Positions 2,040-54,541 of a DNA stretch of 64,000 nucleotides are shown here, piece by piece. This DNA comes from Raja brachyura. Taxonomy: Eukaryota. Within the stretch, counting starts at the first letter, position 1. Every line of letters begins with the position of its first letter. The notes below the pieces were generated by a model. That model was given only the letters and a program-made list of their open reading frames with translations. It did no database searches and was not told the DNA's origin. The position numbers and the translations under genes are program-made. The stretch lies in the NCBI GenBank assembly GCA_963514005.1, contig OY740794.1:17670001-17734000 (forward strand), given 5' to 3'.

Positions 2040-2700
2040 AATGTCTTCATAGTGTCAGAGAGTAATAGTGTGGAAACAGGCCCTTCGGCCCAACATGCCC
2101 ACACTGGCCAACATGTCCCAGCTACACGAGTCCCATTCTACTGCATTTGGTCCATATCCTTCCAAACCTTTAAATTCAAATTCAGCAACAAAAGCTCATG
2201 ATCTAAACAAGGGCTGTGGTAGTAATAAAAGACAGTCACACAGCATAGAAACAGGCCAGTTGGGCCAGCTTGCCTAAGCCCGACCAAGGTGCCCCATCCA
2301 CATGACTCCCACTTGCCCATGTTAGTCCCATATCCCTTCAAACCTTTTCTATCCATGTATGTCCAAATGTCTTTTAGGTGTTATAGTTTCTGCCTTAACA
2401 ACCTCCTCCAGCTACTCATTCCATATTCTCACCACCCTCTGGTGAGAGGAGAATGATTTGATGGGAATCTGAGGGGTACATTTTTTCCCCATACAGAGTG
2501 TGGTGGGTATATGGAATGAGCTGCCGGAGAAAGTAGAAACTGTAACAACATTTAAAAGACATTTGGACAGGTACGTGGATAGAGAAGGTTTAGAGGGATA
2601 TGAGCCAAGCACAGGCAGGTGGGACTAGTAGATGGGGCATCTTGGTCGGCATGGGCTGGCAGGGCCGAAGGGCCTGTGTCTGTTCTGTATGACTACGACT
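2040..2700. mobile_element. Cluster of CR1 3'-end fragments in both orientations
   Basis: Repeated ggaaacaggcccttcggccc / gggccgaagggcctg CR1 3' UTR and WNELP-type coding remnant. Confidence 0.75.
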
Positions 2701-3406
2701 AAAATTTAAATCTGTAATTCCACAAAGCAATTTACATGGGATTTTATTATTCAATTTTTGATTCAAAATCCCAGCTTTATACTTTTTGATGCTTGACCAT
2801 TCATTGGATGTCACCAGCAGGAAGCTGGTCACAGAAGATTGCAAAGATGGCTGTGATGGGAAGAGATCTCTTGGCATGAATGACTTTGTTCCACTTCTGT
2901 AGGTTTCCATTGCATTGAACTGAGTCACAATACCATTTTCTGCCACCAGAGAGCTACACACATCCATTCAAGCTAAAATCTAAATGACACAAAGTGCTGA
3001 AGTAACTCGGGTCAGGCAGCATCTCTGGGACACGTGGATAGGTGATGTTTTGAGTAAGGACCCTTTGCTGTCTAAAGCACTGATTCACTCCCGCACTTTG
3101 TGTCCTTTTGTGCGAACCAGCATTTGCAGTTGCTTGTTTCTACACTGGAAAACTGAAGGCCTTGCACACATGTTTAATGACACAATGGGATTGAACTGCG
3201 GAGTTAAATCACAAATTAAACATGAGAGCCACCTACCATCACGTACCATGAGCGGTGTTCACTTTGCCACATGGAAGTGCAGGGAATAGGATATGGACGG
3301 CACTGTCTACTCTTCTAATCTAATCTAAAGTAGATAATGATACCTCAGATTGTGCACTTTTCAATGTGACCACACGTTGGCCCACACACACAGATATTCA
3401 CATTCA

Positions 3407-4021
3407 GGGTTACACAAAAAGCTGGAGAAACTCAGCGGGTGCAGCAGCATCTAAGGAGCGAAGGAGATAGGCGACGTTTCGGGTCGAGACCCTTCTTCAG
3501 ACTGGTCAGGGATCAGGGAAACGAGAGATATAAACAGTGATGTGGAGAGATAAGGAACAATGAGTGAAAGATATGCAAAAAAGTAAGCAGATGTGGCTGT
3601 GGTATCGAGTCTGGGTGAGGATGTGGTCGTAGAGTTGGAGGGAAGGGGGTATCACAGAGGGGGAGCAGTTAGAGAGGAGGTTGTGAAACTGTCTTCGTAG
3701 GGAGGAGGAGAACTTCTTCAAAGTAGGCATACCTTGAGGAGATATCGCAGTGGAGTAGACAAAGTGTTAAAGAACGAACTGCAGATGCTGGAGAATCGAG
3801 GGTTACACAAAAAGCTGGAGAAACTCAGCGGGTGCAGCAGCATCTAAGGAGCGAAGGAGATAGGCGACGTTTCGGGTTGAGACCCTTCTTCAGACTGGTC
3901 AGGGATCAGGGAAACGAGAGATATAAACAGTGATGTGGAGAGATAAGGAACAATGAGTGAAAGATATGCAAAAAAGTAAGCAGATGTGGCTGTGGTATCG
4001 AGTCTGGGCGAGGATGTGGTC
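3407..4021 (-). mobile_element. Mini Penelope-derived element: ~1.6 tandem copies of a 393-nt monomer, two hammerhead-like cores
   Basis: Direct repeat 3406-3628 / 3799-4021 (2 mismatches seen). TSD TCACATTCA at 3398-3406 and 4022-4030. Contains the apparent start of a PLE ORF (MPTLKKFSSSLRRQF...TRYHSHI). Confidence 0.8.
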
Positions 4022-4669
4022 TCACATTCACGTGTGCAGACACAAACAAGAAGCACAGTAGAAATTGGCAGCTAAAGTCATGGCATTTTCAAGTACGGTT
4101 TGAGTGCAGGAAGCAGCACCAGTACAGTCATCCATTTACTGGATGTTTTGATATATTCACTATTACAAAATGCAGCCAAGATTTTGATTTCACTCCATCA
4201 GATTTATTTTGAAAAAAAGGAAGTGGCATTAGCATTTCTCAACCCAAGTGAGCCAGATTCATTTCAACGAAACTGACTAAACTTAGTGCTAAATATGAAA
4301 GTAAGGCATCAATCTCACGACACAAAAGGAAATGCATCACTCGGCTTGCTAACTTATCCATGGCGTGACTGCTGGGCAATACAAGGTGCTAATGATTTCT
4401 GTTCACTCTCCATGACCCTTAATTTCACCAATGGTTTCCCTCCAAATATTTCTACGTTTCACCTTCCTTTCTTCCTTAGTCATCCAATAAATTAAAGTAC
4501 AAAGCTTCGATAGGAGAAACAGATGCAGCTGGTGAAAAGCTGTTTGCGGAGCTGTGGTTTGTCCGAGAGGTTGGTTCTGGGGGGGGGGGGGGGGGCAATA
4601 TCTGATGGCATAAGTAACTTATTACTGCCTTCATTAGATAAATCACTATTTGCAATATTTGAACAAAGT

Positions 4670-6200
4670 GAAAATTATAGAGCAATCCTGGGGTTCAAGT
4701 TCATAGCTCCCCGACAGTAGCAACACAAGTAGATAGAGTGACCAAGGCAGCGCACAGTCGTTTGTCTTCATTGGATGGGACATTGATTTGAGAGTCAGGA
4801 TGTCACGTTGCAGCTTTTGAGAAACCTGTTTATGCTACATTCGGAGCGTGGCCTGGAGTTCTATTTGCCACATTCCAGGAAGGATGTGGAGGCTTTGGAA
4901 AATTCATCAAAATGCTGCCTGGATTAGAGGATATTACCAATAAGGAGAGGTTGGACAAATTTGCATTATTTTCTCTGAAACATCGGAGCCCAAAGAGATC
5001 TGATAAAAGTATAGAAAGATAGAAAATAGGTGCAGGAGTAGGCCATTCGGCCCTTCGAGCCTGCACCGCCATTCATACCGATCATCCAACTCAGTATCAT
5101 GTACCTGCCTTCTCTCCATACCCCCTGATCCCTTTAGCCACAAGGGCCACATCTAACTCCCTCTTAAATATAGCCAATGAACTGGTCTCAGCTACCTTCT
5201 GTGGCAGAGAATTCCAGAGACTCGCCACTCTCCGTGTGAAAAATGTTTTCCTCATCTCGGTCCTAAAGGAATTCCCCCTTATCCTTAGACTGTGACCCCT
5301 TGTTCTGGACCTCCCCAACATCGGGAACAATCTTCCTGCATCTAGCCTATCCAACCCCTTAAGAATAGGTATATAAAACTATGACAAGCATAGAAAAGAG
5401 AGACAGACACAATATTTTTTCAAGGGTGAAAATGTCAAAGATGAGTGAGCATAGATTTAAGGTGACAACAGCAAAGTTTAAAAAGGAGTGGGGCAAGTTT
5501 TTTTTAACAAGGAAGAATGGTGGTTGCCTGAAATTCACAATGAAGGGTGGTGGTGGAGGCGGATACGACAGTGACATTTAAGGGGCTTTTAGATAGGCAC
5601 ATGAATATGCAAGGAATGGAGGGATACGGTTCACCTGCAGGCAGGATTAACTTAAACTGAAATCATGTCCAATGTGGATATTGAAGGGCTTGTTCCTGTG
5701 ATGTACCTTATCTATATTGTTCTGTGAAAGGCTATCAGTTTCAGACAAAGCAGTGCAATGCAGTGGTAAGACTTGCATCTGGAAGAGGGTGCAAAGCTCT
5801 GGTCTCCCTACACATGAATACACTTGCTTTTGAGGATGGGCAATGAAGATTCACAAGATGGATTCCAGGGATGCAGGGTATGTAGAGGAGAGATTAGGCA
5901 GAATGTCCCTGCACACTCATATTTGGAACAATGAAAAACTCTCCTGGCTCAGGTGCCAAGCACTCGGGGCATGTCTTAGAATAAAAGATCAACAATGTGG
6001 GACTGAGATAAGAAGAAATCTCTTCACTAGAAAAGCAGTGAAGCTTTGGAATTCCCACCATGAAGGCAGTGGTGGCAGCATCTTGGTGTATTGAGGAAAA
6101 AGGTACATGTAGAAAAGTGGTTGAGGTAATATATTGGTCACAATGATATAGAACAGCAGGGCTGGAACAGGAAAGATCGAATGGACCACCCTTGCTCATA
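4670..6200. mobile_element. Old plus-strand CR1 remnants with a younger minus-strand CR1 3' end (~5010-5365) nested inside
   Basis: ORF 5097-5354 (TRGHSLRIRG, WNSLPQ) interrupts a diverged CR1 RT C-terminus. Confidence 0.75.
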
Positions 6201-10138: not shown

Positions 10139-10342
10139 TGTTTAAGAAAGAACTGCTGATGCTGGAAAAATCAAAGGTAGACAAAAAAGCTGGAGAAACT
10201 CAGCGGGTGAGGCAGCATCTATGGAACGAAGGAATAGGCGACGTTTCGGGTCGAAGAAGGGTCTCCATCCGAAACGTCGCCTATTCCTTTGCTCCATAGG
10301 TGCTGCCTCACCCGCTGAGTTTCTCCAGCTTTTTTGTCTACC
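10139..10342. mobile_element. Palindromic Penelope-derived insertion
   Basis: Inverted arms around a truncated hammerhead core. Flanking direct repeat TTCAACATCTGATA at 10125-10138 and 10343-10356. Confidence 0.8.
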
Positions 10343-16155: not shown

Positions 16156-16451
16156 GTGTGGGAAAGAACTGCAGATGCTGGTTTAAATAGAAGGTAGACA
16201 CAAAATGCTGGAGTAAGTCAGCGGGTCAGGCAGCATCTCTGGAGAGAAGAATGGGTGACATTTCTGGTTGAGATCCTTCTTCAGACTCAGGGGAGATGGA
16301 GATATAGACGCATGTTTTCACATCTTACCCTTACCTATGTCTCACTCTCCCCAACTCAGACTGAAGAAGGGTCTCGACCCGAAGCGTCTCCCATTCCTTC
16401 TCTCTAGAGATGCTGCCTGACCCCTCGTGTTACTCCAGCATTTTGTGTCTA
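16156..16451. mobile_element. Palindromic Penelope-derived insertion
   Basis: Inverted arms with a hammerhead-like core on each strand. TSD CCTTTAATCTCACAT at 16141-16155 and 16452-16466. Confidence 0.82.
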
Positions 16452-18089: not shown

Positions 18090-19345
18090 CATTGCCGGCT
18101 GCTACCTCTTGCACCCATGCAGAACTCACGGACTTCATCAACTTCACCACCAATTTCCATCCTGCACTCAAATTTACTTGGACCATCTCCCTCCCCTTTC
18201 TTGATCTCAGACTCCATCACACAAAATGGACTATCGACAGACGTCTGTAACAAACCCACTGACTCCCACAACTACGCTTCTTCCCACCCTGTTTCTGGCA
18301 AGGACTCTATCCCCTACTCCCAATTCCTCCGTCTACGCCGCTTCTGCGCTGAAGAGGAGGTGTTCCATACCAGGACATCCGAGATGTCCTCATTCTTTCA
18401 GGAAAGGGTATTCTGCTCTCCCATCATAGATGAGGCCCTCGCTTATATCTCCTCAGTACTCCGCAGCTCTGCCCTTGTTCCCCCTCCCTCTAGGCGCAAT
18501 AGAGTCCCTCAAGTCCTTACCTTACACCCCGTCACATTCAACACATAATCCTCCAAAATTTTCGCCACCATCAACGGGATCCCAACACCAGTTATATCTT
18601 CCCATTTCCACCCCTTTCTGCCTTCCGCAGAGACCGTTCCCTCCGCCTCTCCCTAGTCAACTCATCCCTTCCAACCCAAACCACATCCTCCCCAGGTACC
18701 TTCCCCTGCAACCGCAGAATATGCGACACCTGTCCCTATGCCTCCTCCCTCGACTCTGTCCAGGGGCCCCGACAGCCCTTTCAGGTTAGGCAGAGGTTCA
18801 CTTGCACCATCTCCAAGCTCATCTACTGTATCCGTTGTTCAAGATGTAGACTCTTACACATTGGCAGGACCAAACGTAGACTGGGCGATCGTTTCACTGA
18901 ACACCTTCGCTCGGCCCGCCTGAGCCTACCCGATCTCCAGGTTGTTAAATACTTTAATTCTCCTTCCATTACCACACAGACGTTTATGTCCTAGGCCTCC
19001 TCCATTCTCAGAGTGAGGCTAAACGCAAATTGGAGGAACGGGATCTCATATTTAGCCTGGGCAGCTTACAGCCCAGTGGTACGAATATTTATTTCTCTCC
19101 CTCCCTCTCAAGTCACACTATCTTCTCGTTATCACCTAACCAACACCTAACCAATGGCCTGTTTTCTTTTTCATCGTTACTTTTTTGCATTTCTTTCATT
19201 CATTGTTCTTTATCACTCAACATCATTGTCTATATCTCTCGTCTCGCTTATCCCTAAACAGTCTGACGAAGGGTCTCGACCCGAAACGTCACCCATTCCT
19301 TCTCTCCAGAGATGCTGATTTACTCTGCCTTTTTGTGTCTATCTT
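18090..19345 (+). mobile_element. Penelope-like element 3' part (RT thumb + GIY-YIG endonuclease + hammerhead-bearing end)
   Basis: PFLD, KPTDSH and SSHP...IPYSQFLRLRR motifs. GIY-YIG-like LIYCIRC...HIGRTKRRLGDRF at ~18818-18900. Core CTGACGA-AGGGTCTCGACCC-GAAACGTC at 19263-19290. Confidence 0.88.
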
Positions 19346-26688: not shown

Positions 26689-28086
26689 AAGACAATCACA
26701 AAATCAGCCAACTATCACCTTAAGAATATATCAAAGGGTTAAAGGACTTATGGTTCAGCAAGATTTGGAAAAATGTGTCCATGCATTTATCCGCAGTAGA
26801 CTTGACTACTGTAACGCTGTCTGCACAGTTCTCCCTAAAAAATCGACTAGACAGCTGCAGGTGATTCAGAACACTGCTGCTCGAGTCCTCTCCAAGACCA
26901 AGAAAGTCGATCGCATCACTCCAGTTTTGAGGTCTTTACACTAACTTCCAGTCTGTCAAAGAATTGATTTCAAACTATGACTGTTGGTTTATAAAGCACT
27001 GAATGGTCTAGCGCCAAAATACATTTCCGATCTTCTGCTACATTATGAACCATCCAGACATCTGAGGTCGTCTGGGACAGGTCTGCTTTCAGTCCCCAGA
27101 GTCAGAACTAAACGTAGAGAAGCAGCGTTTAGTTTTTATGTACCACATAAATGGAACAAACTTCCAGAAAAATGCAGGTCCACTCCAACTCTCAGTTCTT
27201 TTAAATCGGGGCTGAAGACTTTTCTGTTTGACACTGCTTTTAATTAAATTAAATAATTATTAATATCTTACAAGAATAAAAGTTACGGTGCAGTGTATTT
27301 TATACTTGTCTTATTCTATTTTAGCTTGTTTTTATTTTCTATTATTTTTAATGACTGCTTTTAATTGTTTTTTAATGCTTTGTGTATAGCACTTTAAATT
27401 GCCTTGTGGCTGAAATGTGCTATATAAATAAACTTGCTTGCTGAAGAGAAAACTGACGGAGGTTAGACCCCAAATCAAGCATAAGCTAACGATGGCTGCA
27501 ATCCAGACCTGGCAGAGCATCACCAGCAACTGTTGATGTCTATGAATCGCAGACATCAAGCAGTCATTGCATGCAAAGGATATGCAACAAAATACTAAAC
27601 ATGACTACTTTCATTTACATGACATTGCTGTGTCCCAAACATTATGGTGCCCTGAAATGGGGGGACTATGTATAAACACTGCTGTAATTTCTACATGGCG
27701 AAACCAAAATGTATAAAAATGGCCTTTATTAAAATCTGACAATGTGCACTTTAACCACACGTGATTTTTTTCTATTACAAATCTCAAATTGTGGCGTACA
27801 GAGGCAAATAAATAAATGATGGGTCTTTGTTCCAAACATTATGGAGGGACATTGTAACACAGAGTGTCAATAAGGGAAATGTACTTGCTGTGGGACACAT
27901 TAACTTCCAAAAGGCATTCGATAATTTGCCATATAATAAACTTGTCGTTTAGATGGATAGCCATGGAATGTAAGTGGCTACAGAACCACGAACATAAAGT
28001 CTGCTGATTAATCCAGAACAGCAATGCTGGAAGACTGGAGTGGGGTTTCCCCAAGGGTCAGGACAACAGCGACTGCTTTTCTTTAA

Positions 28087-28247
28087 GAAGGAACTGCAGA
28101 TGATGGAAAATCAAAGGTAGACAAAAATGCTGGAGAAACTCTGAAGAAGAATATTCTGAAGAAGGGACTCGACCCGAAACGTTGCCTATTTCCTTCGCTC
28201 CATAGGTGCTGCCTCACCCGCTGAGTTTCTCCAGCATTTTTGTCTAC
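28087..28247. mobile_element. Palindromic Penelope-derived insertion
   Basis: Inverted arms, core at 28156-28183. TSD CTGCTT(T/A)TCTTTAA at 28073-28086 and 28248-28261. Confidence 0.78.
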
Positions 28248-32020: not shown

Positions 32021-32281
32021 GATTCCCATCATAATTTGAACTCTCTTTCCTCTGGGGTGTAAGTTATGATGGGAATCACTGAAAAATAGTTCCATTAGAG
32101 ATAAAGATAAAAAACAAATTACATTGAATCACTGAGCAACTTAAAAAATGTTTAGACTTTCATAAGCTGTCACTCACTGGTCAGTATTATGAAAATGTCA
32201 TAAATTGTTAATACCCAATAACTAGAACCAGCAGCAATAGTTTTGACCCGACTATTTACCCCAATCTCTTACGTAACTGTG

Positions 32282-32433
32282 TTAAAGAAGGAACTGCAGA
32301 TGCTGGAGAATCGAGGGTACACAAAAGGCTGGAGAAACTCAGCGGGTGCAGCAACATCTAAGGAGCGAAGGAGATAGGCGACGTTCTGAAGAAGGGTCTC
32401 GACCCGAAACGTCTCTCCAGCCTTTTGTGTACC
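32282..32433. mobile_element. Palindromic Penelope-derived insertion
   Basis: Inverted arms, core at 32386-32413. TSD CTCTTAC(G/A)TAACTGTG at 32266-32281 and 32434-32449. Confidence 0.8.
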
Positions 32434-32985
32434 CTCTTACATAACTGTGACTGTTTCAAGATGCCCTCAATGTGAATCAAAAATTCCAAACAGCTTCACA
32501 TTTCTGAATAGGGTTATTATTCTCTGACCAAAACTCCCAGTGGGAGCTGAATTTCAACCTCGGTTGGTAACAGGTCCAAGATAAATTCCCTTTATCTTGC
32601 ACAACACTGAAGAGCACCACACAGCATTTGCAAAGAATATCACATCTATTTGAATCATTGGAATTTATCATACACAAGTATTAAATACTGGGTAGATTAA
32701 AGCCACCTACGTGTGCATTTTTTCTACTGACCCTCCAGCGTACAGCCTATTCATTATTTGTGATGAAATATTTCAGTGCTTCACTCAATTCTAATTTTTA
32801 GGATTAGCCGAAGCACAAGGACTGAAGTTACCTTTGCACTGCTTTTCAAATTCTCATTCCTTTTTCAAATGCAGAATTTTGTTCATTCCATCGTTATTCC
32901 CCCCACCCCCCCCTCCAAAATGGCGGCATGGCGTTGCAGCGGTAGAGGGGCTGCCTCACAGCGACATAGCCACTGTGTGATTTCC

Positions 32986-46739: not shown

Positions 46740-47650
46740 CAGGCCGGGGCACCTCTCCCCGAGGCCGGGTTAGACATGAGCTGCACCCCCCGGGCGTTTG
46801 TTCCTACGGTTCATGAATCTTACCGGTTTGCTGCTGAAGCCTTGGATCTTGGCGGCTCGGTCGTAGATGGAGCATCTAATGGACGTGGATCCAACATCGA
46901 CGGCCAGGACGTAAGTGTCGCTGCGTAGAAACCCGTTTTTGACAGAACCCATAGCTGGGCGCTGGGCACCAAACAGCGGCCGGGGAGGAGGGAAGGAGGC
47001 GCTTGCGAGAGTCACAGAGCGAGGGCACGGAGCGGCTGCAGAACCATGGAGGAACAACAACCCAACAAAACCAAATAACCTCAGGGGAGAGACACAGAGA
47101 GCGAGAGAGGGGAGGAAGGAAGGGAAGGGATCAGGCGGCGAGGTTGGACATGCAAGCGCGCCCCGGTTACTAGGAAGCGGCGGCTCCGAGTAACTTCAGC
47201 TGATACTTGGCGTTCCAGGAAGTTACACGTGTATCCAGATGAACCATACGCATCCTTCTGCTGCTGCTTCTTCTCGCAGCGGCTTTCCCCGCCGCAGGAG
47301 CAGCAAGTGAGATGATGCTCAGAGGCAGGCTGCGGGGTGTGGTAGACACAGGCTGCTGCCGCCTGGAGCTGGAGCTGGAGCTGGGGCTGGGGCTGGAGCG
47401 CCCATGGAGCTGGAGCTGGGGCTGGGGCCGGCGCCGTCCGCACGGAACGTGAGCTCGGCTGTTTTGCTACTTTTCCGCCGGTCATTCACCCCGCCTGTGA
47501 CGTCCGCGTCACACATCAGCCCATCTAAAAGGGGAGGCGCGCCGGCGGCTCACAACACACGCTCCTCACGCTGGGGACCGCGGCGTTGCAGCCGCCTCAC
47601 AGCGACAGCGATAGCGACAGCAGTTCGATCCCTGTCACATCTTCGCCTCA
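46740..47650 (-). promoter_or_regulatory. CpG island / probable GK5 promoter and 5' UTR
   Basis: Abrupt CpG- and GC-rich tract around exon 1. Contains a CRE-like TGACGTC (~47498), an E-box CACGTG (~47226), GC boxes and a (GAGCTG/GGGCTG)n tract at ~47363-47430. The TSS cannot be determined. Confidence 0.75.
46824..46952 (-). CDS. GK5: Glycerol kinase 5, coding exon 1 (MGSVKNGFLRSDTYVLAVDVGSTSIRCSIYDRAAKIQGFSSKP)
   Basis: FGGY-kinase phosphate-1 motif (LAVDVGSTSIRC). 129 nt = 43 codons, followed by donor CCG|GTAAGA (phase 0). Lies in a CpG island. Resembles the recalled vertebrate GK5 N-terminus (VLGLDVGSSVIRCHVYDRAA). Confidence 0.93.
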
Positions 47651-47657
47651 CATGTGG

Positions 47658-47682
47658 AATAATAATAATAATAATAATAATA
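47658..47682. repeat. (AAT)n microsatellite between the CpG island and the CR1
   Basis: About 8 AAT units seen directly. Confidence 0.9.
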
Positions 47683-50350
47683 CTGAACTCTCTTTTGAAT
47701 GCAATCCAGTGAATCACCTCCACTGCCTTCTGTGGCAGAGAGTTGCACGAATTCATAACTCTCTGTGTGAAAAAGTTGTTCCTCCTCTCAGTTCTAAATG
47801 GCCTACCCCTTCTTAAACTGTGGCCCCTGGTTCTGGACTCTCCCAACATCTGGAATGTTTCCTGCATCTAGTGCGTCCAATCCCTTCATAATGTTATATG
47901 TTTCTATAAAATCCCTTCTCATCCTTCTAAATTCCAGTGAATACAGGCTCAGTCGCTCCATTCAGTCCCACCATCCTGGGAATTAACATCGTGAACCTAT
48001 GCTGCACTCCCTCAATAGCAAGAATGTCCTTCCTCAAATTAGGAGACCAAAACTGCACACAATACTCCAGGTGTGGTCTCACCAGAGCCCTGTACAAATG
48101 CAGATGGACCTCTTTGCTCCTATACTCAACTCCTCTTATGAAGGCCATTAGCTTTCTTCACTGCCTGTATGCTGTATGTACCTGTATGCTTACTTTCAGT
48201 GACTGATGTACAAGGATACCCAGGTCTCGTTGTACCTCCCCTTTTCCTGACCCGACACCATAAAGATAATAATCTGCCTTCCCGTTCTTTCCACCAAAGT
48301 GGTTAACCTCACATTTATCCACATTATACTGTATTGCCATGCATCTGCCCACTCACCCAACCTGTCAGTCACCCTGCATCCTCACAGCAGCCTCTTCACC
48401 GTTCACACCGCTACCCAGCTTTGTGTCATCTACAAATTTGCTAATGTTACTTTTAATTCATTCATCTAAATCATTAATGTATATTGTAAATAGCTGCGGT
48501 CCCAGCACCAAGCTTTACGGCACCCCACCAGTCACTGCTTGCCATTCTGAAAGGGACCCGTTAATCCCGACTCTTTGTTTCCTTTCTGCCAACCAATTTT
48601 CTATCCATGTCAATACCCTACCCCCAATACCATGTGCTCTAATTTTGCCCACTAATCTCCTGTGTGGGACCTTACCAAAGGCTTTCTGAAAGCCCAGGTA
48701 CACTACATCCACTGGCTCTCCCTTGTCTATTTTACTTCTTACATCCTCAAAGAATTCCAGAAGATTAGTCAAGCATGATTTCCCATTCATTAATCCATGC
48801 TGACTCGGACCGATCCTGTTACTGCTATCCAATTGAGCCGCTATTACATCTTTAATAATTGACTCCAGCATCTTCCCCACCACCGATGTCAGGCTAACTG
48901 GTCTATAATTCCCTGCTTTCTCTCTCCCTCGTTTCTTGAAAAGTGGGATAACATTAGCTACTCTCCAATCCATAGGAACTGATCCAGAATCTCTAGAACA
49001 TTGGAAAAAGATCACCAATGCATCCACGATTTCCAGAGCCCACTCCTTGAGTACCCTGGGATGCAGTCCATCGGGACCTGGGGATTTATCAGCCTTCAGT
49101 ACCATCAGTCTACCAACACCATTTCCTGACTAATGTGAATTTCTTTCAGTTCCTCCAATACCTTAGGTCCTCTGTCTCCTAGTACATCTGGGAGATTTGT
49201 TCTGTCTTCACGAAGGAAGACACAAACAAAGTACCTATTCAACTCATCTGCCATTTCCTTGTTCCCCATGATAAATTCACCTGTTTCTGTCTTCAAGGGA
49301 CCCACATTTGTCTTAACTAATTTTTTCCTCTTCACATACCTAAAGAAGCATTTACTATCCTCCTTTATATTCTTGGCTAGCTTAACTTTGTACTTCATCT
49401 TTTCTCCCCATATTGCCTTTTTAGTTACCTTCTGTTGATCTTTAAAAGTTGCCCAAACCTCTGGCTTCTCGCTCATCTTTGCAATGTTATATGTCTTCTC
49501 TTTTATTTTTATACTGTCCTTGACTTCCCTTGTCACCCACGGTCGCCTCTTATTCCCCTTAGAATCTTTTTTTCCTCTTTGGAATGAACTGATCTTACAT
49601 CTTCTGGATTATTCCCAAAAATACATGCCTTTGCTGTTCCACCGTTATCCCTGCTAGGGTCCATTTCCAGTCAACTTTGGCCAGCTCCTCCCTCGTACCT
49701 CCATAATCCCCTTTCTTCAACTGCAATACTGACATTTCCGATTTTAACTTCTCCCTCTCAAATTGCAGATTAAAACGTATCATTTTATGATCACTACCTC
49801 CTCATGGTTCCTTTACCTTGAGTTCCCTTACCAAATCCGGTTCATTACACAACACTAAATCCAGAATTGCCTTTTCCCTGGTCGACTCCAGTACAAGCTG
49901 CTCTAAGAATCCATCTCGGAGGCACGCTACAAATTCCCTTTCTTGGGATCCAGTACCAACCTGATTTTCCCAGTCTACCTGCATGTTGAAATCTCCCATA
50001 ACCACCATTGCATTACCTTTGTAACATGCTACTCCAGGCTACTCTTTGGGGACTAGTAGATGACTCCCATTATGGTCTTTTTACCATTTACAATTTCTCA
50101 GTTCTATCCACAATGACTCTACATCTTCTGATTTTACTTCGGAGTCACGTGAGTGACTACGTGAAGAAGCCCCGCCTGACGCTGGATCGGCATTACGTCG
50201 TCGCTGTCGGCAGCGAAAGAGCTGCAGAGCGCAGCTCCACACAGCGGTAAGGAACCGGCCCGCAGGTAAGAGAGTTTTACAAAATTTAGGGCGAGGCTCC
50301 AGAACTCCGTAGCCTGGTGGGTAAACCAGGAGGAGTTAGCAAAAAACAAA

Positions 50351-52747
50351 ATGGAGAAGGCCAAAAAACAGCGGGTAAAACGTGCGTCCCAGGGTGATGA
50401 GTCGGGACAGGAGATTATTGCGGAGCCGGTTCCGATACCGGTGGCTGTTGAAATACCCATTAGTGAGGCTCTGATTGCTCCACAAACAGAAACTGTAGAG
50501 GAAACCCCAGTGCCTAAAAAATGTAAAAGAAAAGCTGAAAGGCCTAGGGGTTCTGATGAATCAGATTCAGAAGGTCCAGAAAGAAAAGCCTTATGGCTCA
50601 GAATGGACCAGATGGAGAAAATGCTCCAAACTATTATCAACCAAGGGTCTAAGAACGCAGAATATTCCCAGGCAGCCCCTGAGGGGGTTCCATATCGTGA
50701 ATATAGTGCCAGTTTGAATTGGGAATTTGAAACTCCAGTGCCTGGGATTGGACTGGAGGAAGTCTCCTTTGAACAAGTTTCAGGAATACCAGGGCTGTAT
50801 GAGACAGACCCTGAAAGTGGTGATTGCGGTCTGGAGTACACACCACAATACAATTATATGGATCCAGGTGTGCCTGATGTGGCACAAGATTTTGCTATAC
50901 CTGGAGGAGGCGGTGAGGCCATGGAAGATAACCTGGCGGCCAATATTAATTATATGGTCTCTCACCCGCTTCAAGAAGCTGTTATGGTTGAGACAGCAGA
51001 AATGTATAAAACACCTATCAATTGTGCCTCATTGAAGGTACCTACGGTGAATCCGGCTGTTTGGGCGTCAATGTCATCAATAATGCGGGCGCAGGATATT
51101 CGATTTCAAAGAGTCCTCATGCTGATTTCAGCTGGCATTACTGCACTTGGTAGACAAGTGGAAGGTTGTGGAATGACCAAAGTGCAGAAACATATGTTGG
51201 CCTTATTTTGCAACTCATTTTTTGAGATAAATTGCATGAGGAAGATTGCCATTCGACCTCTGTTACATCCAAGATTTGCAGGGTTGTGTAAACCAAGCAA
51301 TGTTCAAACTCCTGGTTATTTGTTCGGAGAGGATTTGTCTAAGCAAATTAAAGAAATGGATGAAGAGGCAAAGACTTTTGGTCGTATGAAACCCTTCAGC
51401 TTTGGCCAGAGATGGACTGGCTATATGAGAAAGGGCTTTGATTTTGGAGCTAGTACAAGCCGAGGCAGGAGTATGATAAGGAAAAATTTCCAGCCAACAC
51501 AGCCGAATGTACGCCCATTCATTGGGAAAAGGAGATCATTTCGTCGAGCTGGAGAGGTACATAAACATTATCCTATTAAAGAGGAATGTTGGGATGAGCC
51601 ACAGATTGGTGGTAGACTCCAAATGTTTTATAAGGAATGGGACAATATAACAGTTGATCGTGTGGTATTAGACACTGTGCTAGGATCTACCATTGATTTT
51701 GTGGAAGGTATGGTTCCATTGGGACAGAATGAGCCTAGTCATTCCTTGATGTTCTCAGAGCTTGAGAAAATTCAAATTGACAAAGAAATTAAGAATTTGA
51801 GTAAAAAAGGAGTTATCGAGAAAACAGGAGAGGATCCACAACAATTTGTATCAAACATTTTCCCCAGACCAAAGAAAGATGGGGGTTGTAGGATCATTTT
51901 AGATCTCACACTTTTGAATACATTTGTCCAGTATAAACATTTTAAAATGGACACATTCTACACTGTAATGCAGTTGGTATCAACAGGCTGTTATATGGCT
52001 ACAATAGATTTGAAGGATGCATATTATTCGGTCCCAATTCATCATAGTTTTCGCAGGTATTTAAAGTTTAAATGGATGGGACAGCTGTGGCAATACAAAG
52101 CTTTGCCTAATGGATTAAGTTCAGCACCTAGATTGTTCACTAAATTGTTAAAGCCAGCACTTGCACTGCTAAGGGCACAAAAACACATCGTTATGGCTTA
52201 TCTAGATGACATTTTAATTGTCAATGCTAATCAGGAATCAGCTGAAAAATCAGTCTCAGCAACTATTAGCTTGTTTGAGAAGTTGGGTTTCCTGATCCAT
52301 CCAACAAAATCTAAGTTACAGCCATCCCAAACCATTGAATATCTGGGGTTTGTGATTAACTCAGTTACCATGTTGGTAACTTTACCAATGGATAAGGTGT
52401 TAGATTTGACAAATGTGTGTCAAAACCTGATTAACAAACCTTATCCCTCCATCCGAGAGGTTGCCAAGGGTATTGGTAAATTGGTAGCAGCATTTCCAGC
52501 AGTAGAGTTTGGTCGTCTACATTACCAAAATCTTCAAAGGGCAAAAACTAAAGCGCTAATTCAGCGAGCAGGCCATTTTGATAGGCCAATGCAATTGCCT
52601 AAGGAAGCTTTATCAGAATTACATTGGTGGATTGAGAATGTTCCACAAGCTGCTAAGAACATTTTAGTTCATCAGCCAGTCGTGTTTTTACAAACTGACG
52701 CAAGTCCTCTCGGATGGGGGGCTACGGACAATGAGACCAGCTGTTGA
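50351..52747 (+). CDS. DIRS gag-like + reverse transcriptase + N-terminal RNase H (798 aa, premature stop)
   Basis: Gag-like C-terminal LFGEDL; RT motifs PKKDGGCRIILDL, IDLKDAY, LPNGLSSAPRLFTK, YLDD, YLG; RNase H start TDASxxGWGA, then TGA. Confidence 0.92.
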   Translation: MEKAKKQRVKRASQGDESGQEIIAEPVPIPVAVEIPISEALIAPQTETVEETPVPKKCKRKAERPRGSDESDSEGPERKALWLRMDQMEKMLQTIINQGSKNAEYSQAAPEGVPYREYSASLNWEFETPVPGIGLEEVSFEQVSGIPGLYETDPESGDCGLEYTPQYNYMDPGVPDVAQDFAIPGGGGEAMEDNLAANINYMVSHPLQEAVMVETAEMYKTPINCASLKVPTVNPAVWASMSSIMRAQDIRFQRVLMLISAGITALGRQVEGCGMTKVQKHMLALFCNSFFEINCMRKIAIRPLLHPRFAGLCKPSNVQTPGYLFGEDLSKQIKEMDEEAKTFGRMKPFSFGQRWTGYMRKGFDFGASTSRGRSMIRKNFQPTQPNVRPFIGKRRSFRRAGEVHKHYPIKEECWDEPQIGGRLQMFYKEWDNITVDRVVLDTVLGSTIDFVEGMVPLGQNEPSHSLMFSELEKIQIDKEIKNLSKKGVIEKTGEDPQQFVSNIFPRPKKDGGCRIILDLTLLNTFVQYKHFKMDTFYTVMQLVSTGCYMATIDLKDAYYSVPIHHSFRRYLKFKWMGQLWQYKALPNGLSSAPRLFTKLLKPALALLRAQKHIVMAYLDDILIVNANQESAEKSVSATISLFEKLGFLIHPTKSKLQPSQTIEYLGFVINSVTMLVTLPMDKVLDLTNVCQNLINKPYPSIREVAKGIGKLVAAFPAVEFGRLHYQNLQRAKTKALIQRAGHFDRPMQLPKEALSELHWWIENVPQAAKNILVHQPVVFLQTDASPLGWGATDNETSC

Positions 52748-53483
52748 GGCAGATGAGCTATTCCAAGAGGATTTGTTGCTCCAAACATATGGTATTAATT
52801 ATTTGGAGCTACTGGGAGCATTTTATGGATTAAAAGCTTATTGCTCTTCATTAAAGGATTTGCATGTCCAAGTACAAATAGATAATACCACAGCTGTGGC
52901 ATATATCAATCACATGGGTGGTGTCAGATCAATATCATGTTATCATCTGGTAAACCAGATATGGCAACGGTGTTTGGCAAAAAATATTTGGCTTTCAGCT
53001 ATTTATCTCCGGGGGAGAGACAATGTTGTGGCAGACAAAAGATCACGAATATTTAAAGACAATACAGAATGGATGTTAAATCCACAAATTTTCAAAAATA
53101 TTGTCAGTCGGTATGGAGTACCAGACATTGATCTGTTTGCATCTAGATTGAATCACCAATTGCCGAAATACATGTCTTGGGAACACGATCCAGGGGCAGC
53201 AGCGGTGGATGCTTTCTCGCTACACTGGGGGAATACGTTCTTTTATGCTTTTCCCCCATTCTGTCTCATTGGGCAATGTCTCAAGAAAATAGCGCAAGAC
53301 GCTGCCAAAGGCATTTTGGTGGTGCCAAATTGGCCCACGCAGTCATGGTTCCCATTGATGCTAAAAATGATTATTGAACCATGTATGACAATTCTCAGTT
53401 GCGACAATCTGTTGACACAACCAGTAACAAAAGAAATTCATCCATTGCATGATCATATGAATTTGTTAATCTGCAGGTTCTGA
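52731..53483 (+). pseudogene. DIRS pol C-terminal part (RNase H remainder + Dam-like N6-adenine methyltransferase domain), frameshifted from the upstream ORF
   Basis: RNase H motifs INYLELL, DNTTAVAYIN and NVVAD; methyltransferase motifs IDLFAS, DAF, YAFPPF and LVVPNWPTQSWF. Confidence 0.9.
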
Positions 53484-53491
53484 CCAGACCA

Positions 53492-54541
53492 TTGCAAGAG
53501 TTTGAACTGTCGGACAGGACCATGGATGTTATAGATGCAGCTTGGAGGACTAGCACTAAAAAACAATATATGTCGCATATAAGGAAATGGGAAGCTTTTT
53601 GTACACAGTCAAAGATATCTTATCATACTGCAAACATTTCAAATGTATTGGAGTTCCTTGCTGGGTTACACTTTGATGAGCATTTGAGTTATAGTGCCAT
53701 TAATTGTGCTCGGAGTGCACCGTCATCCTATTTAGGACAAAATTCGGATCGGGATTCAGTTGGGTCTCACCCACTAGTATCCCGATTCATGAAAGGTATT
53801 TTTAATAAAAATCCTCCCAAGCCCAGATATACAGATATTTGGGATGTTAGCATTGTTCTCACTTTGCTTAAACAATGGACTCCAATTAATTCAATGTCTT
53901 TGCAGAAATTAACATTCAAGGTGGTTATGTTAATGGCATTGGTATCAGCTCAAAGAGTACAAACTTTGCAATTGTTAAGGTTGGATTGCATGCATGTGAC
54001 TACAGATAACATTGTGTTTTATGTTTATGACTTGATCAAACAAAGCAGACCAGGGAGAACTGGAATGAAGGTAATGCTTAAAGCATATCCTATTGATGAA
54101 ACAATGTGTGTAGTTAAGCATTTAACTCAATACATTGAGGTAACCAAAAATCTCAGAGGTTCTGAGAAAGCGTTATTGATAACACACAAAAAACCACATA
54201 CAAAAGTTTCAGTTCAAACCATTTCTAGATGGTTAAAACAGGTTTTGGGTCTAGCAGGAATAGACACTGATGTGTTTAAATCTCACTCCACTAGGGCGGC
54301 AGCTACGTCCGCGGCGAAGGTACAGGACGTACCACTCGATCAAATTTTAGAGGCCGCAGGGTGGTCTAGAGAAGAAACTTTTTCAAAGTTCTACAATAAA
54401 CCTGTTGTCACGGTGCCAGGATTTGGACACAGTACTGGGTTCTCTTTAAATGCTTGCTTTGTTTATATTATCGATTTATATTATCGATTTGTTACCATTG
54501 ACATCATTTATCAATTATTTTGTAATTTTCCCCTGCGATAG
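53492..54541 (+). CDS. DIRS tyrosine recombinase (first ATG at 53522)
   Basis: SAM-like N-terminus followed by catalytic R (SAQRVQTL), K (KQSRP), HSTR, AGWS and FSKFY. The last ~40 codons look like read-through into AT-rich UTR. Confidence 0.92.
   Translation: MQEFELSDRTMDVIDAAWRTSTKKQYMSHIRKWEAFCTQSKISYHTANISNVLEFLAGLHFDEHLSYSAINCARSAPSSYLGQNSDRDSVGSHPLVSRFMKGIFNKNPPKPRYTDIWDVSIVLTLLKQWTPINSMSLQKLTFKVVMLMALVSAQRVQTLQLLRLDCMHVTTDNIVFYVYDLIKQSRPGRTGMKVMLKAYPIDETMCVVKHLTQYIEVTKNLRGSEKALLITHKKPHTKVSVQTISRWLKQVLGLAGIDTDVFKSHSTRAAATSAAKVQDVPLDQILEAAGWSREETFSKFYNKPVVTVPGFGHSTGFSLNACFVYIIDLYYRFVTIDIIYQLFCNFPLR

Follow-up and report, generated by a model that had tools for sequence, protein, structure and literature searches.

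The window analysed here comprises 64 kb of Raja brachyura DNA. Its minus strand carries five coding exons of an FGGY kinase gene, at about 46.9, 19.6, 14.7, 10.5 and 6.5 kb; four of the five gave sub-threshold FGGY_N matches in collinear order, and a PDB search with the first exon returned no match. Judging from the exon peptides, this gene is probably GK5. Because all five exons are located upstream on the minus strand, the insertion described below (3407-4021, minus strand) is in sense orientation and follows the fifth exon, so that its placement in intron 5 by an earlier sequence-only reading holds. There is no sign of a host function for the insert, which is one of very many hammerhead-bearing fragments of Penelope-like elements (PLEs) in the genome.

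The complete insertion is 615 bp long and is bounded by a 9-bp target-site duplication (TSD), TCACATTCA, found at both 3398-3406 and 4022-4030; the left copy and the 3′ end of the element overlap by 1 nt, the last base of that copy. It represents an internally deleted PLE in partial tandem and amounts to 1.57 units of 393 nt. A direct repeat of 223 nt (3406-3628 and 3799-4021) recurs with a period of 393, and the two repeats differ at two sites (3485/3878 and 3616/4009). The TSD-flanked insertion of 615 bp and its 393-nt period, as first read, are confirmed; the accompanying description of a tandem of the monomer is right as to repeats and period, but 1.57 units are present, not two. Tandem Repeats Finder did not call the insert with either of two parameter sets (2500-5000 was searched with those of the preprint 10.64898/2026.07.22.740005); since the insert holds 1.57 units, a tandem-repeat step of that kind misses it. 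Simple local tandem duplication requires a repeat at least as long as the period, and is ruled out by geometry because the repeat (223 nt) is shorter than the period (393 nt). As proposed earlier, the insertion is TSD-bounded and non-autonomous; it is also recent and non-coding.

A contig from a closely related organism (organism B) matches the flank to exactly position 3406 and then continues with 655 unlike letters; between its flank and that of the window there are two differences, a substitution and a microsatellite insertion. Judged by this contig, organism B likely has the empty site, without the insert. In the public run X1, 93% of the sampled words of 3300-4130 are present, and one X1 contig passes from the flank into the insert by 24 nt with no difference, the threshold for bridging being 31 letters.

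Read along the minus strand, the full unit begins with an optional PLE tail of approximately 36 nt (3799-3764), which is followed by the remaining 5′ UTR (3731-3763), an ATG at 3730 that opens a stub of 48 codons (3587-3730), and a deletion junction at 3586/3585. Beyond the junction are the last 86 nt of the 3′ UTR upstream of the hammerhead (3501-3586, with a second copy at 3894-3979), the hammerhead itself, and 66 nt from its cut site to the fixed proximal 3′ end (3407-3472). In the position of a pseudo-LTR (pLTR), a 5′-truncated upstream unit (3800-4021, minus strand) contains stub codons 35-48, the junction, the 3′ UTR and the hammerhead, and ends at the proximal terminus of the PLE family. 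The tail occupies the interval between the two 3′ termini of the family, which would be start sites of reverse transcription; it was delimited by an inverted copy of the same subfamily at 32279-32436, with one terminus per arm, and by a depth step near 3765. Contigs of other copies span 3669-3786, and the frame of the stub stays open across the junction, reaching a stop after 74 codons. The unit, which derives from a PLE pLTR, encodes no protein and has a G+C content of 48.6%.

Over 142 nt, the 3′ part of the unit shares 86.6% identity with the 3′ end of a second element, at about 18090-19345 on the plus strand. This is a 5′-truncated, frameshifted Neptune-type PLE with an undeleted 3′ half (the end of the reverse transcriptase (RT), a CxxxxCxxC motif, GIY-YIG, 3′ UTR and hammerhead), and it lies antisense in the intron after kinase exon 2. 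Its frames match proteins with RT and GIY-YIG domains, including P0001 (RVT_1 + GIY-YIG), and the named matches are from cartilaginous fishes. The CxxxxCxxC linker is found both in the frame at 18503-18994 and in P0001. A cysteine motif between RT and endonuclease (EN) is a trait of the Neptune or Nematis clades (PMC8557442, PMC3846280). Sequence comparison thus points to a Neptune-type PLE, the cysteine linker fitting Neptune or Nematis alike.

For the 48-aa stub, a word-indexed protein search and a Pfam search of its frame gave no match. A full HMMER search returned nine proteins, among which P0007 and P0015 were excluded as repetitive and chance-like. Seven of the nine align from query residue 1 with 53-60% identity, and six of these seven start at their own first residue. 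One match, P0014, extends further and there shares 60% identity over 159 aa with P0016, an RT protein carrying the DKG motif; compared directly, the stub and P0016 do not match, P0016 being without that N-terminus. Through these matches and the link from P0014 to P0016, the stub is identified transitively as the true start of a PLE ORF. Judged by homology, therefore, both halves of the unit are PLE parts (3′ UTR, hammerhead, tail, 5′ UTR and 48 codons), in support of the initial view of the monomer as a Penelope end joined to an ORF start, then put at about 47 codons and now at 48 from the ATG at 3730.

The junction of ORF codon 49 with the 3′ UTR (3585-3586, minus strand; second copy at 3978-3979) shows T/TT microhomology of 1-2 nt, the ORF homology and the 3′ UTR homology overlapping by one or two T at 3586-3585. 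Within the window the junction sequence has exactly two occurrences, 3570-3601 and 3963-3994, which confirms its reported presence in both repeats. None of the 17 other family loci recognized in the window by BLASTN extends into the ORF stub, and none has the junction. Native 3′ UTR sequence continues past 3585 in 27 contigs of run X10, and contigs of runs X3 and X15 match the ORF stub to 3585 and then diverge from the window. Among the matches listed for contigs of public runs, which are the longest pieces, no piece spans the junction; such contigs cannot prove absence. The exact junction pattern had no occurrence in metagenome and viral contigs, nor the ORF-start pattern in metagenome contigs, all of these being collections unlikely to contain DNA of this animal.

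Summed depths at 3590-3611, which mix deleted and undeleted copies and are not copy numbers, reached 5,416 in X1, against 6.46 in the flank and 8.8 million at the hammerhead. In X3 the corresponding value was 93,890, against about 110 in the flank. Compared with the next bin, the bin at 3590-3611 is higher in X3 (next bin 58,886) and lower in X1 (next bin 15,488). These depths speak neither for nor against further copies of the junction. In X15, guessed to be an RNA run, the depth of 76.5 in this bin equals that of one junction-less contig whose match ends at 3585, and carries no weight.

The upstream unit starts 42 nt before its own junction, and the template therefore carried the junction twice. 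The double occurrence of the junction thus demonstrates that more than one unit was copied, from either a multimer or a circle, and the earlier suggestion that the template was already one or the other is supported, the repeat being shorter than the period and the junction present twice. Back-splicing was considered as the origin of the junction and rejected, because the native 3′ UTR letters on the acceptor side are not AG. We found no published report of this PLE family or of a doubled deletion junction in a search conducted largely outside the subscription literature; the chondrichthyan consensus set in the supplements of 10.64898/2026.07.22.740005 may already hold the unit.

The loose ends of other family copies cluster at 3411 in 163, 137 and 217 contigs of the DNA-type runs X1, X3 and X10, respectively; near this position the window has one extra T relative to most family copies. 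Within the window, the same-subfamily copy at 28.7 kb has an identical 3′ end, and the inverted copy at 32.3 kb has the same end in one arm and an end 36 nt further in the other. The 3′ end of the insert is the fixed end of the family, and its 5′ end at 4021 is an ordinary truncation. It follows that the insert is not freely permuted, contrary to its first description as a permuted tandem. PLEs carry an optional tail of 30-40 nt (PMC8557442, PMC3846280), which has been explained by reverse transcription starting at two internal sites (PMC11167929). The standard arrangement of PLEs is a partial tandem in which a 5′-truncated copy precedes a full one, and one rotifer copy has 218-bp pLTRs and a 9-bp TSD (PMC8557442, PMC3846280). 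The insert accordingly displays three PLE traits, namely a partial tandem (pLTR), the optional 30-40-nt tail and a short TSD.

Two minimal type I hammerhead cores, one per repeat, are confirmed on the minus strand at 3500-3473 and 3893-3866, with the pattern CTGAAGA-A-GGGT(CTCG/CTCA)ACCC-GAAAC-GTC. Loop II is CUCG in the downstream copy (3473-3500) and CUCA in the upstream copy (3866-3893), and the cuts predicted after plus-strand positions 3473 and 3866 had been placed correctly. The pattern has seven matches in the window against 0.01 expected by chance, so that five of the seven are other copies of the same repeat family. Both cores agree in full with the minimal PLE descriptor (CUGANGA, extra nucleotide, G10.1-C11.1, GAAA, palindromic 15.2-16.2 and NUH). 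The extra A before stem II, once regarded as a caveat, turns out to be a conserved trait of PLE minimal hammerheads (PMC4209133). Stem II has 4 bp, stem I has 2 bp with one G-U pair, and there is no loop 3; a 2-bp helix I has been described in the D. virilis PLE (PMC4209133). An Rfam scan of 2500-5000 at E 10 returned no hammerhead and two chance lncRNA matches.

Stem II had a pairing probability of 0.01-0.08 overall and of 0.01-0.07 in the 615-nt RNA, where the two ACGU palindromes cross-pair with a probability of 0.0001; for stem I the value was about 0 in single-core folds. Nearest-neighbour models of this kind take no account of tertiary contacts or of assistance by protein. The minimum free energy (MFE) was -4.8 kcal/mol for the bare cores and -4.8 to -9.0 kcal/mol with flanks, the lower values representing other folds. 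The linear fold of the 393-nt monomer gave z +0.77 relative to shuffles; the circular fold had -48.5 kcal/mol, compared with -50.6 kcal/mol for shuffled sequences (42 of 60 shuffles were as good), and 39% of the bases were paired, which is not above shuffles. Folding does not favour an active hammerhead, and on these models activity is doubtful. In loop II the repeats differ by a CpG transition, by which the upstream unit departs from the usual letter of the family; the difference is therefore uninformative on selection for the fold, and an argument for such selection from it was rejected.

Published experiments are of the same tenor. Single minimal cores showed no cleavage and dimers weak cleavage (PMC4209133), and one of nine Xenopus hammerhead dimers cleaved (10.64898/2026.07.22.740005). 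The hammerhead of the Anolis PLE was cut only with protein, and RNA-seq showed no ends at its cut site; hammerhead mutants of this element inserted normally, and unprocessed RNA was the main substrate (PMC11167929).

The minus strand at 3502/3501 and 3895/3894 resembles a 3′ splice site: it has a pyrimidine tract, a CTGAC that looks like a branch point, and a CAG one base before the core. In the D. virilis PLE an intron ends at helix I (PMC4209133). To judge from its letters, this tract upstream of the core, in sense orientation within a host intron, could act as a cryptic acceptor.

Our preferred explanation, which we consider probable, is that a PLE protein, acting in trans, took as its template a multimeric transcript of the deleted unit that had not been cleaved, and copied 615 nt of it from the proximal internal start. 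The source of the protein would be a very abundant Neptune-type PLE providing RT and GIY-YIG endonuclease. An earlier event would have joined ORF codon 49 to the 3′ UTR, giving the 393-nt unit around the pLTR-ORF boundary, the anatomy of which is directly visible. This unit would already have been repeated in the template RNA, most likely by uncleaved read-through of a head-to-tail source array, the linear form of the multimer being our assumption. The PLE protein would then have nicked the intron and started reverse transcription inside the RNA at the proximal site, 3407; the ends and the TSD are observed, and the internal start is suggested by the Anolis PLE. Reverse transcription would have continued across the two intact hammerhead sites and ended after 615 nt, and the insertion would have left the 9-bp duplication. 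The hammerheads would be inherited pLTR parts not needed for insertion, and their cutting is probably weak or protein-dependent, so that an effect on the host pre-mRNA seems unlikely.

By analogy, the fixed 3′ end and the 36-nt tail would match the two internal RT start sites reported in PMC11167929. The Anolis element belongs to Poseidon, not Neptune, and the transfer of its mechanism is our inference. Its protein requires the initial 172 nt of the ORF (PMC11167929); if this requirement carries over, the template extended beyond 3407 and was a multimer or a circle. A circular template is the model proposed for PLE tandems (PMC4209133). Nothing that we found favours the circle, as the monomer folds like shuffles, the hammerhead fold is improbable, and PLE hammerheads in the literature cut weakly and can be dispensed with for insertion in vitro. 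Against the linear multimer stand the full match of both cores to the minimal descriptor and the fact that no contig among those listed spans the junction. Moreover, a linear source array pushes the question back, because an earlier step still had to duplicate the junction. If the requirement of the Anolis protein does carry over, the present daughter copy, read within the intron, could regenerate the full unit only via a circle.

A complete retrozyme cycle, in which dimeric hammerheads, perhaps helped by the PLE protein, cut the RNA, the 393-nt piece is circularised and the PLE RT travels 1.57 rounds, is possible, but we hold it only tentatively. It accounts for the doubled junction in one step, the two cores are intact and minimal with the extra nucleotide 9/10.1 and the palindromic ACGU, and a circle keeps the start sites together with the downstream ORF stub, as the need of the Anolis protein for the first 172 nt of the ORF would demand. 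The fixed 3′ end is compatible with a circle if initiation is internal, and 393 nt falls within the 170-400 nt of animal retrozyme circles, near the chondrichthyan mean of 363 bp. However, known circles have canonical hammerheads and are highly self-paired, and the 393-nt unit is neither; minimal PLE hammerheads, furthermore, cleave poorly, are dispensable in vitro and leave no cut ends in RNA-seq. The fuller version, in which the unit is a circular RNA parasite of 393 nt excised by protein-assisted double hammerhead cleavage and the 1.57-mer is the product of rolling-circle reverse transcription, we regard as unlikely. In that version the unit would keep exactly the cis signals required by a Neptune protein (3′ UTR, hammerhead, both RT starts and the first 146 nt of the ORF). 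If true, the 1.57-mer would stand, as a marked intermediate, between autonomous PLEs and retrozymes, and would prove from nature the circle model for PLE tandems.

Template jumping, by which the RT reaches the 5′ end of a deleted monomer RNA and resumes at the 3′ end of this RNA or of a sister molecule, so that neither a multimer nor a circle need precede, appears improbable. Head-to-tail joints from 3496-3504 to 3756-3770 or 3702-3706 are found in four of four runs, so end-to-end joining of PLE cDNAs is frequent; the insert, however, is seamless native sequence except at the one junction, and jumping would need either precise jumps that neither lost nor gained a letter or two occurrences of one and the same microhomology jump. 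A one-off local event or assembly artefact (a partial in-place duplication of a deleted copy, or misjoined reads) is very improbable even though the junction is absent from all 17 other family loci in the window, because the repeat falls short of the period, a single TSD bounds the entire insert, the repeats differ at two places, and X1 contains 93% of the sampled words of the region together with a contig crossing 24 nt into the insert.

The joints just mentioned deserve notice for themselves. One partner, 3702-3706, is located about 25 nt into the ORF and the other, 3756-3770, at the end of the tail, both being joined to the upstream edge of the hammerhead. They point to short hammerhead units arranged head to tail, about 130-200 nt in length, perhaps with a third RT start site, and such units may be better retrozyme candidates than the locus at 3407-4021.

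The locus is a non-autonomous, internally deleted PLE in partial tandem. Canonical EN+ Neptune-type PLEs are about 3 kb long, whereas here the ORF is cut to 48 codons and the unit to 393 nt; the upstream copy of a canonical PLE holds the endonuclease end, in place of which the deletion junction is found here (PMC8557442, PMC3846280, PMC11167929). Non-autonomous hammerhead tandems of similar size derived from PLEs are already known in vertebrates. Animal retrozymes have been defined as non-autonomous, pLTR-derived hammerhead tandems, and PLE-derived retrozymes were reported in 20 of 31 vertebrates, including the sole chondrichthyan sampled (mean consensus 363 bp), with 42-44% of Xenopus copies intronic (10.64898/2026.07.22.740005). 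Like these non-LTR retrozymes, the present unit is non-coding, pLTR-derived and of similar length, and carries type I hammerheads in consecutive units. It differs from them in comprising 1.57 units, with two consecutive hammerheads but not two full units; the MFE of the bare core, -4.8 kcal/mol, sits at their cut-off of -5 kcal/mol. It also retains an ORF stub, on which the main text of the preprint is silent (10.64898/2026.07.22.740005).

Size within 170-400 nt, G+C content below 50%, a TSD of more than 4 bp and a type I hammerhead are shared with the circular-RNA retrozymes described in PMC7229834. In contrast to those, the hammerhead is minimal and not canonical (loop 1-loop 2), and the monomer is not self-paired. 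The locus works like a retrozyme of the preprint, but the tandem-repeat step used there does not call it, and it lacks two of the circular-retrozyme traits of PMC7229834. With the minimal hammerheads of metazoan PLEs it shares the extra nucleotide 9/10.1, G10.1-C11.1, the palindromic 15.2-16.2 and the absence of loop 3, stem II being 4 bp here as against 7-8 bp in schistosomes and 6 bp in D. virilis (PMC4209133). Chlamys MRC1 is likewise non-autonomous with cis ends kept, and MRC1-type elements make pLTRs and head-to-tail insertions (PMC8557442); R2 SIDEs, too, are non-autonomous and internally deleted with the ribozyme kept (PMC6765202). Both belong to other clades and were shown to be multi-copy families (PMC8557442, PMC6765202), whereas the present unit is seen at one locus of the window.

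The upstream pLTR of an ordinary PLE copy does not allow the routes of regeneration to be distinguished from simple inheritance. Here the private junction marks both units, and more-than-unit copying has thus happened in this lineage. The locus provides a small and cheap test substrate for the regeneration of PLE partial tandems by a circle, multimeric read-through or a template jump. It is, moreover, in line with the proposed derivation of animal retrozymes from PLEs, and gives a pointer to the smallest cis region of a Neptune-type element.

Several other elements were recognized in the window. Inverted pairs of short pLTR fragments are present at 10139-10334, 16162-16448, 28082-28246, 32279-32436 and 2982-3108. 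The first four of these pairs have a tail in one arm, a typical PLE inverted insertion, and the pair at 32.3 kb has a target duplication of about 15 bp. At 50270-54541 on the plus strand, the ORF list contains three long frames of 825, 271 and 362 aa. These are presumably RT, an RNase H/methylase-like protein and a tyrosine recombinase, and we take them to represent a near-complete DIRS-type retrotransposon. The GC-rich start of a second gene, or a 5′ region, is found at 47081-47712, head to head with kinase exon 1, and includes a CTGGAG repeat at 47363-47425.
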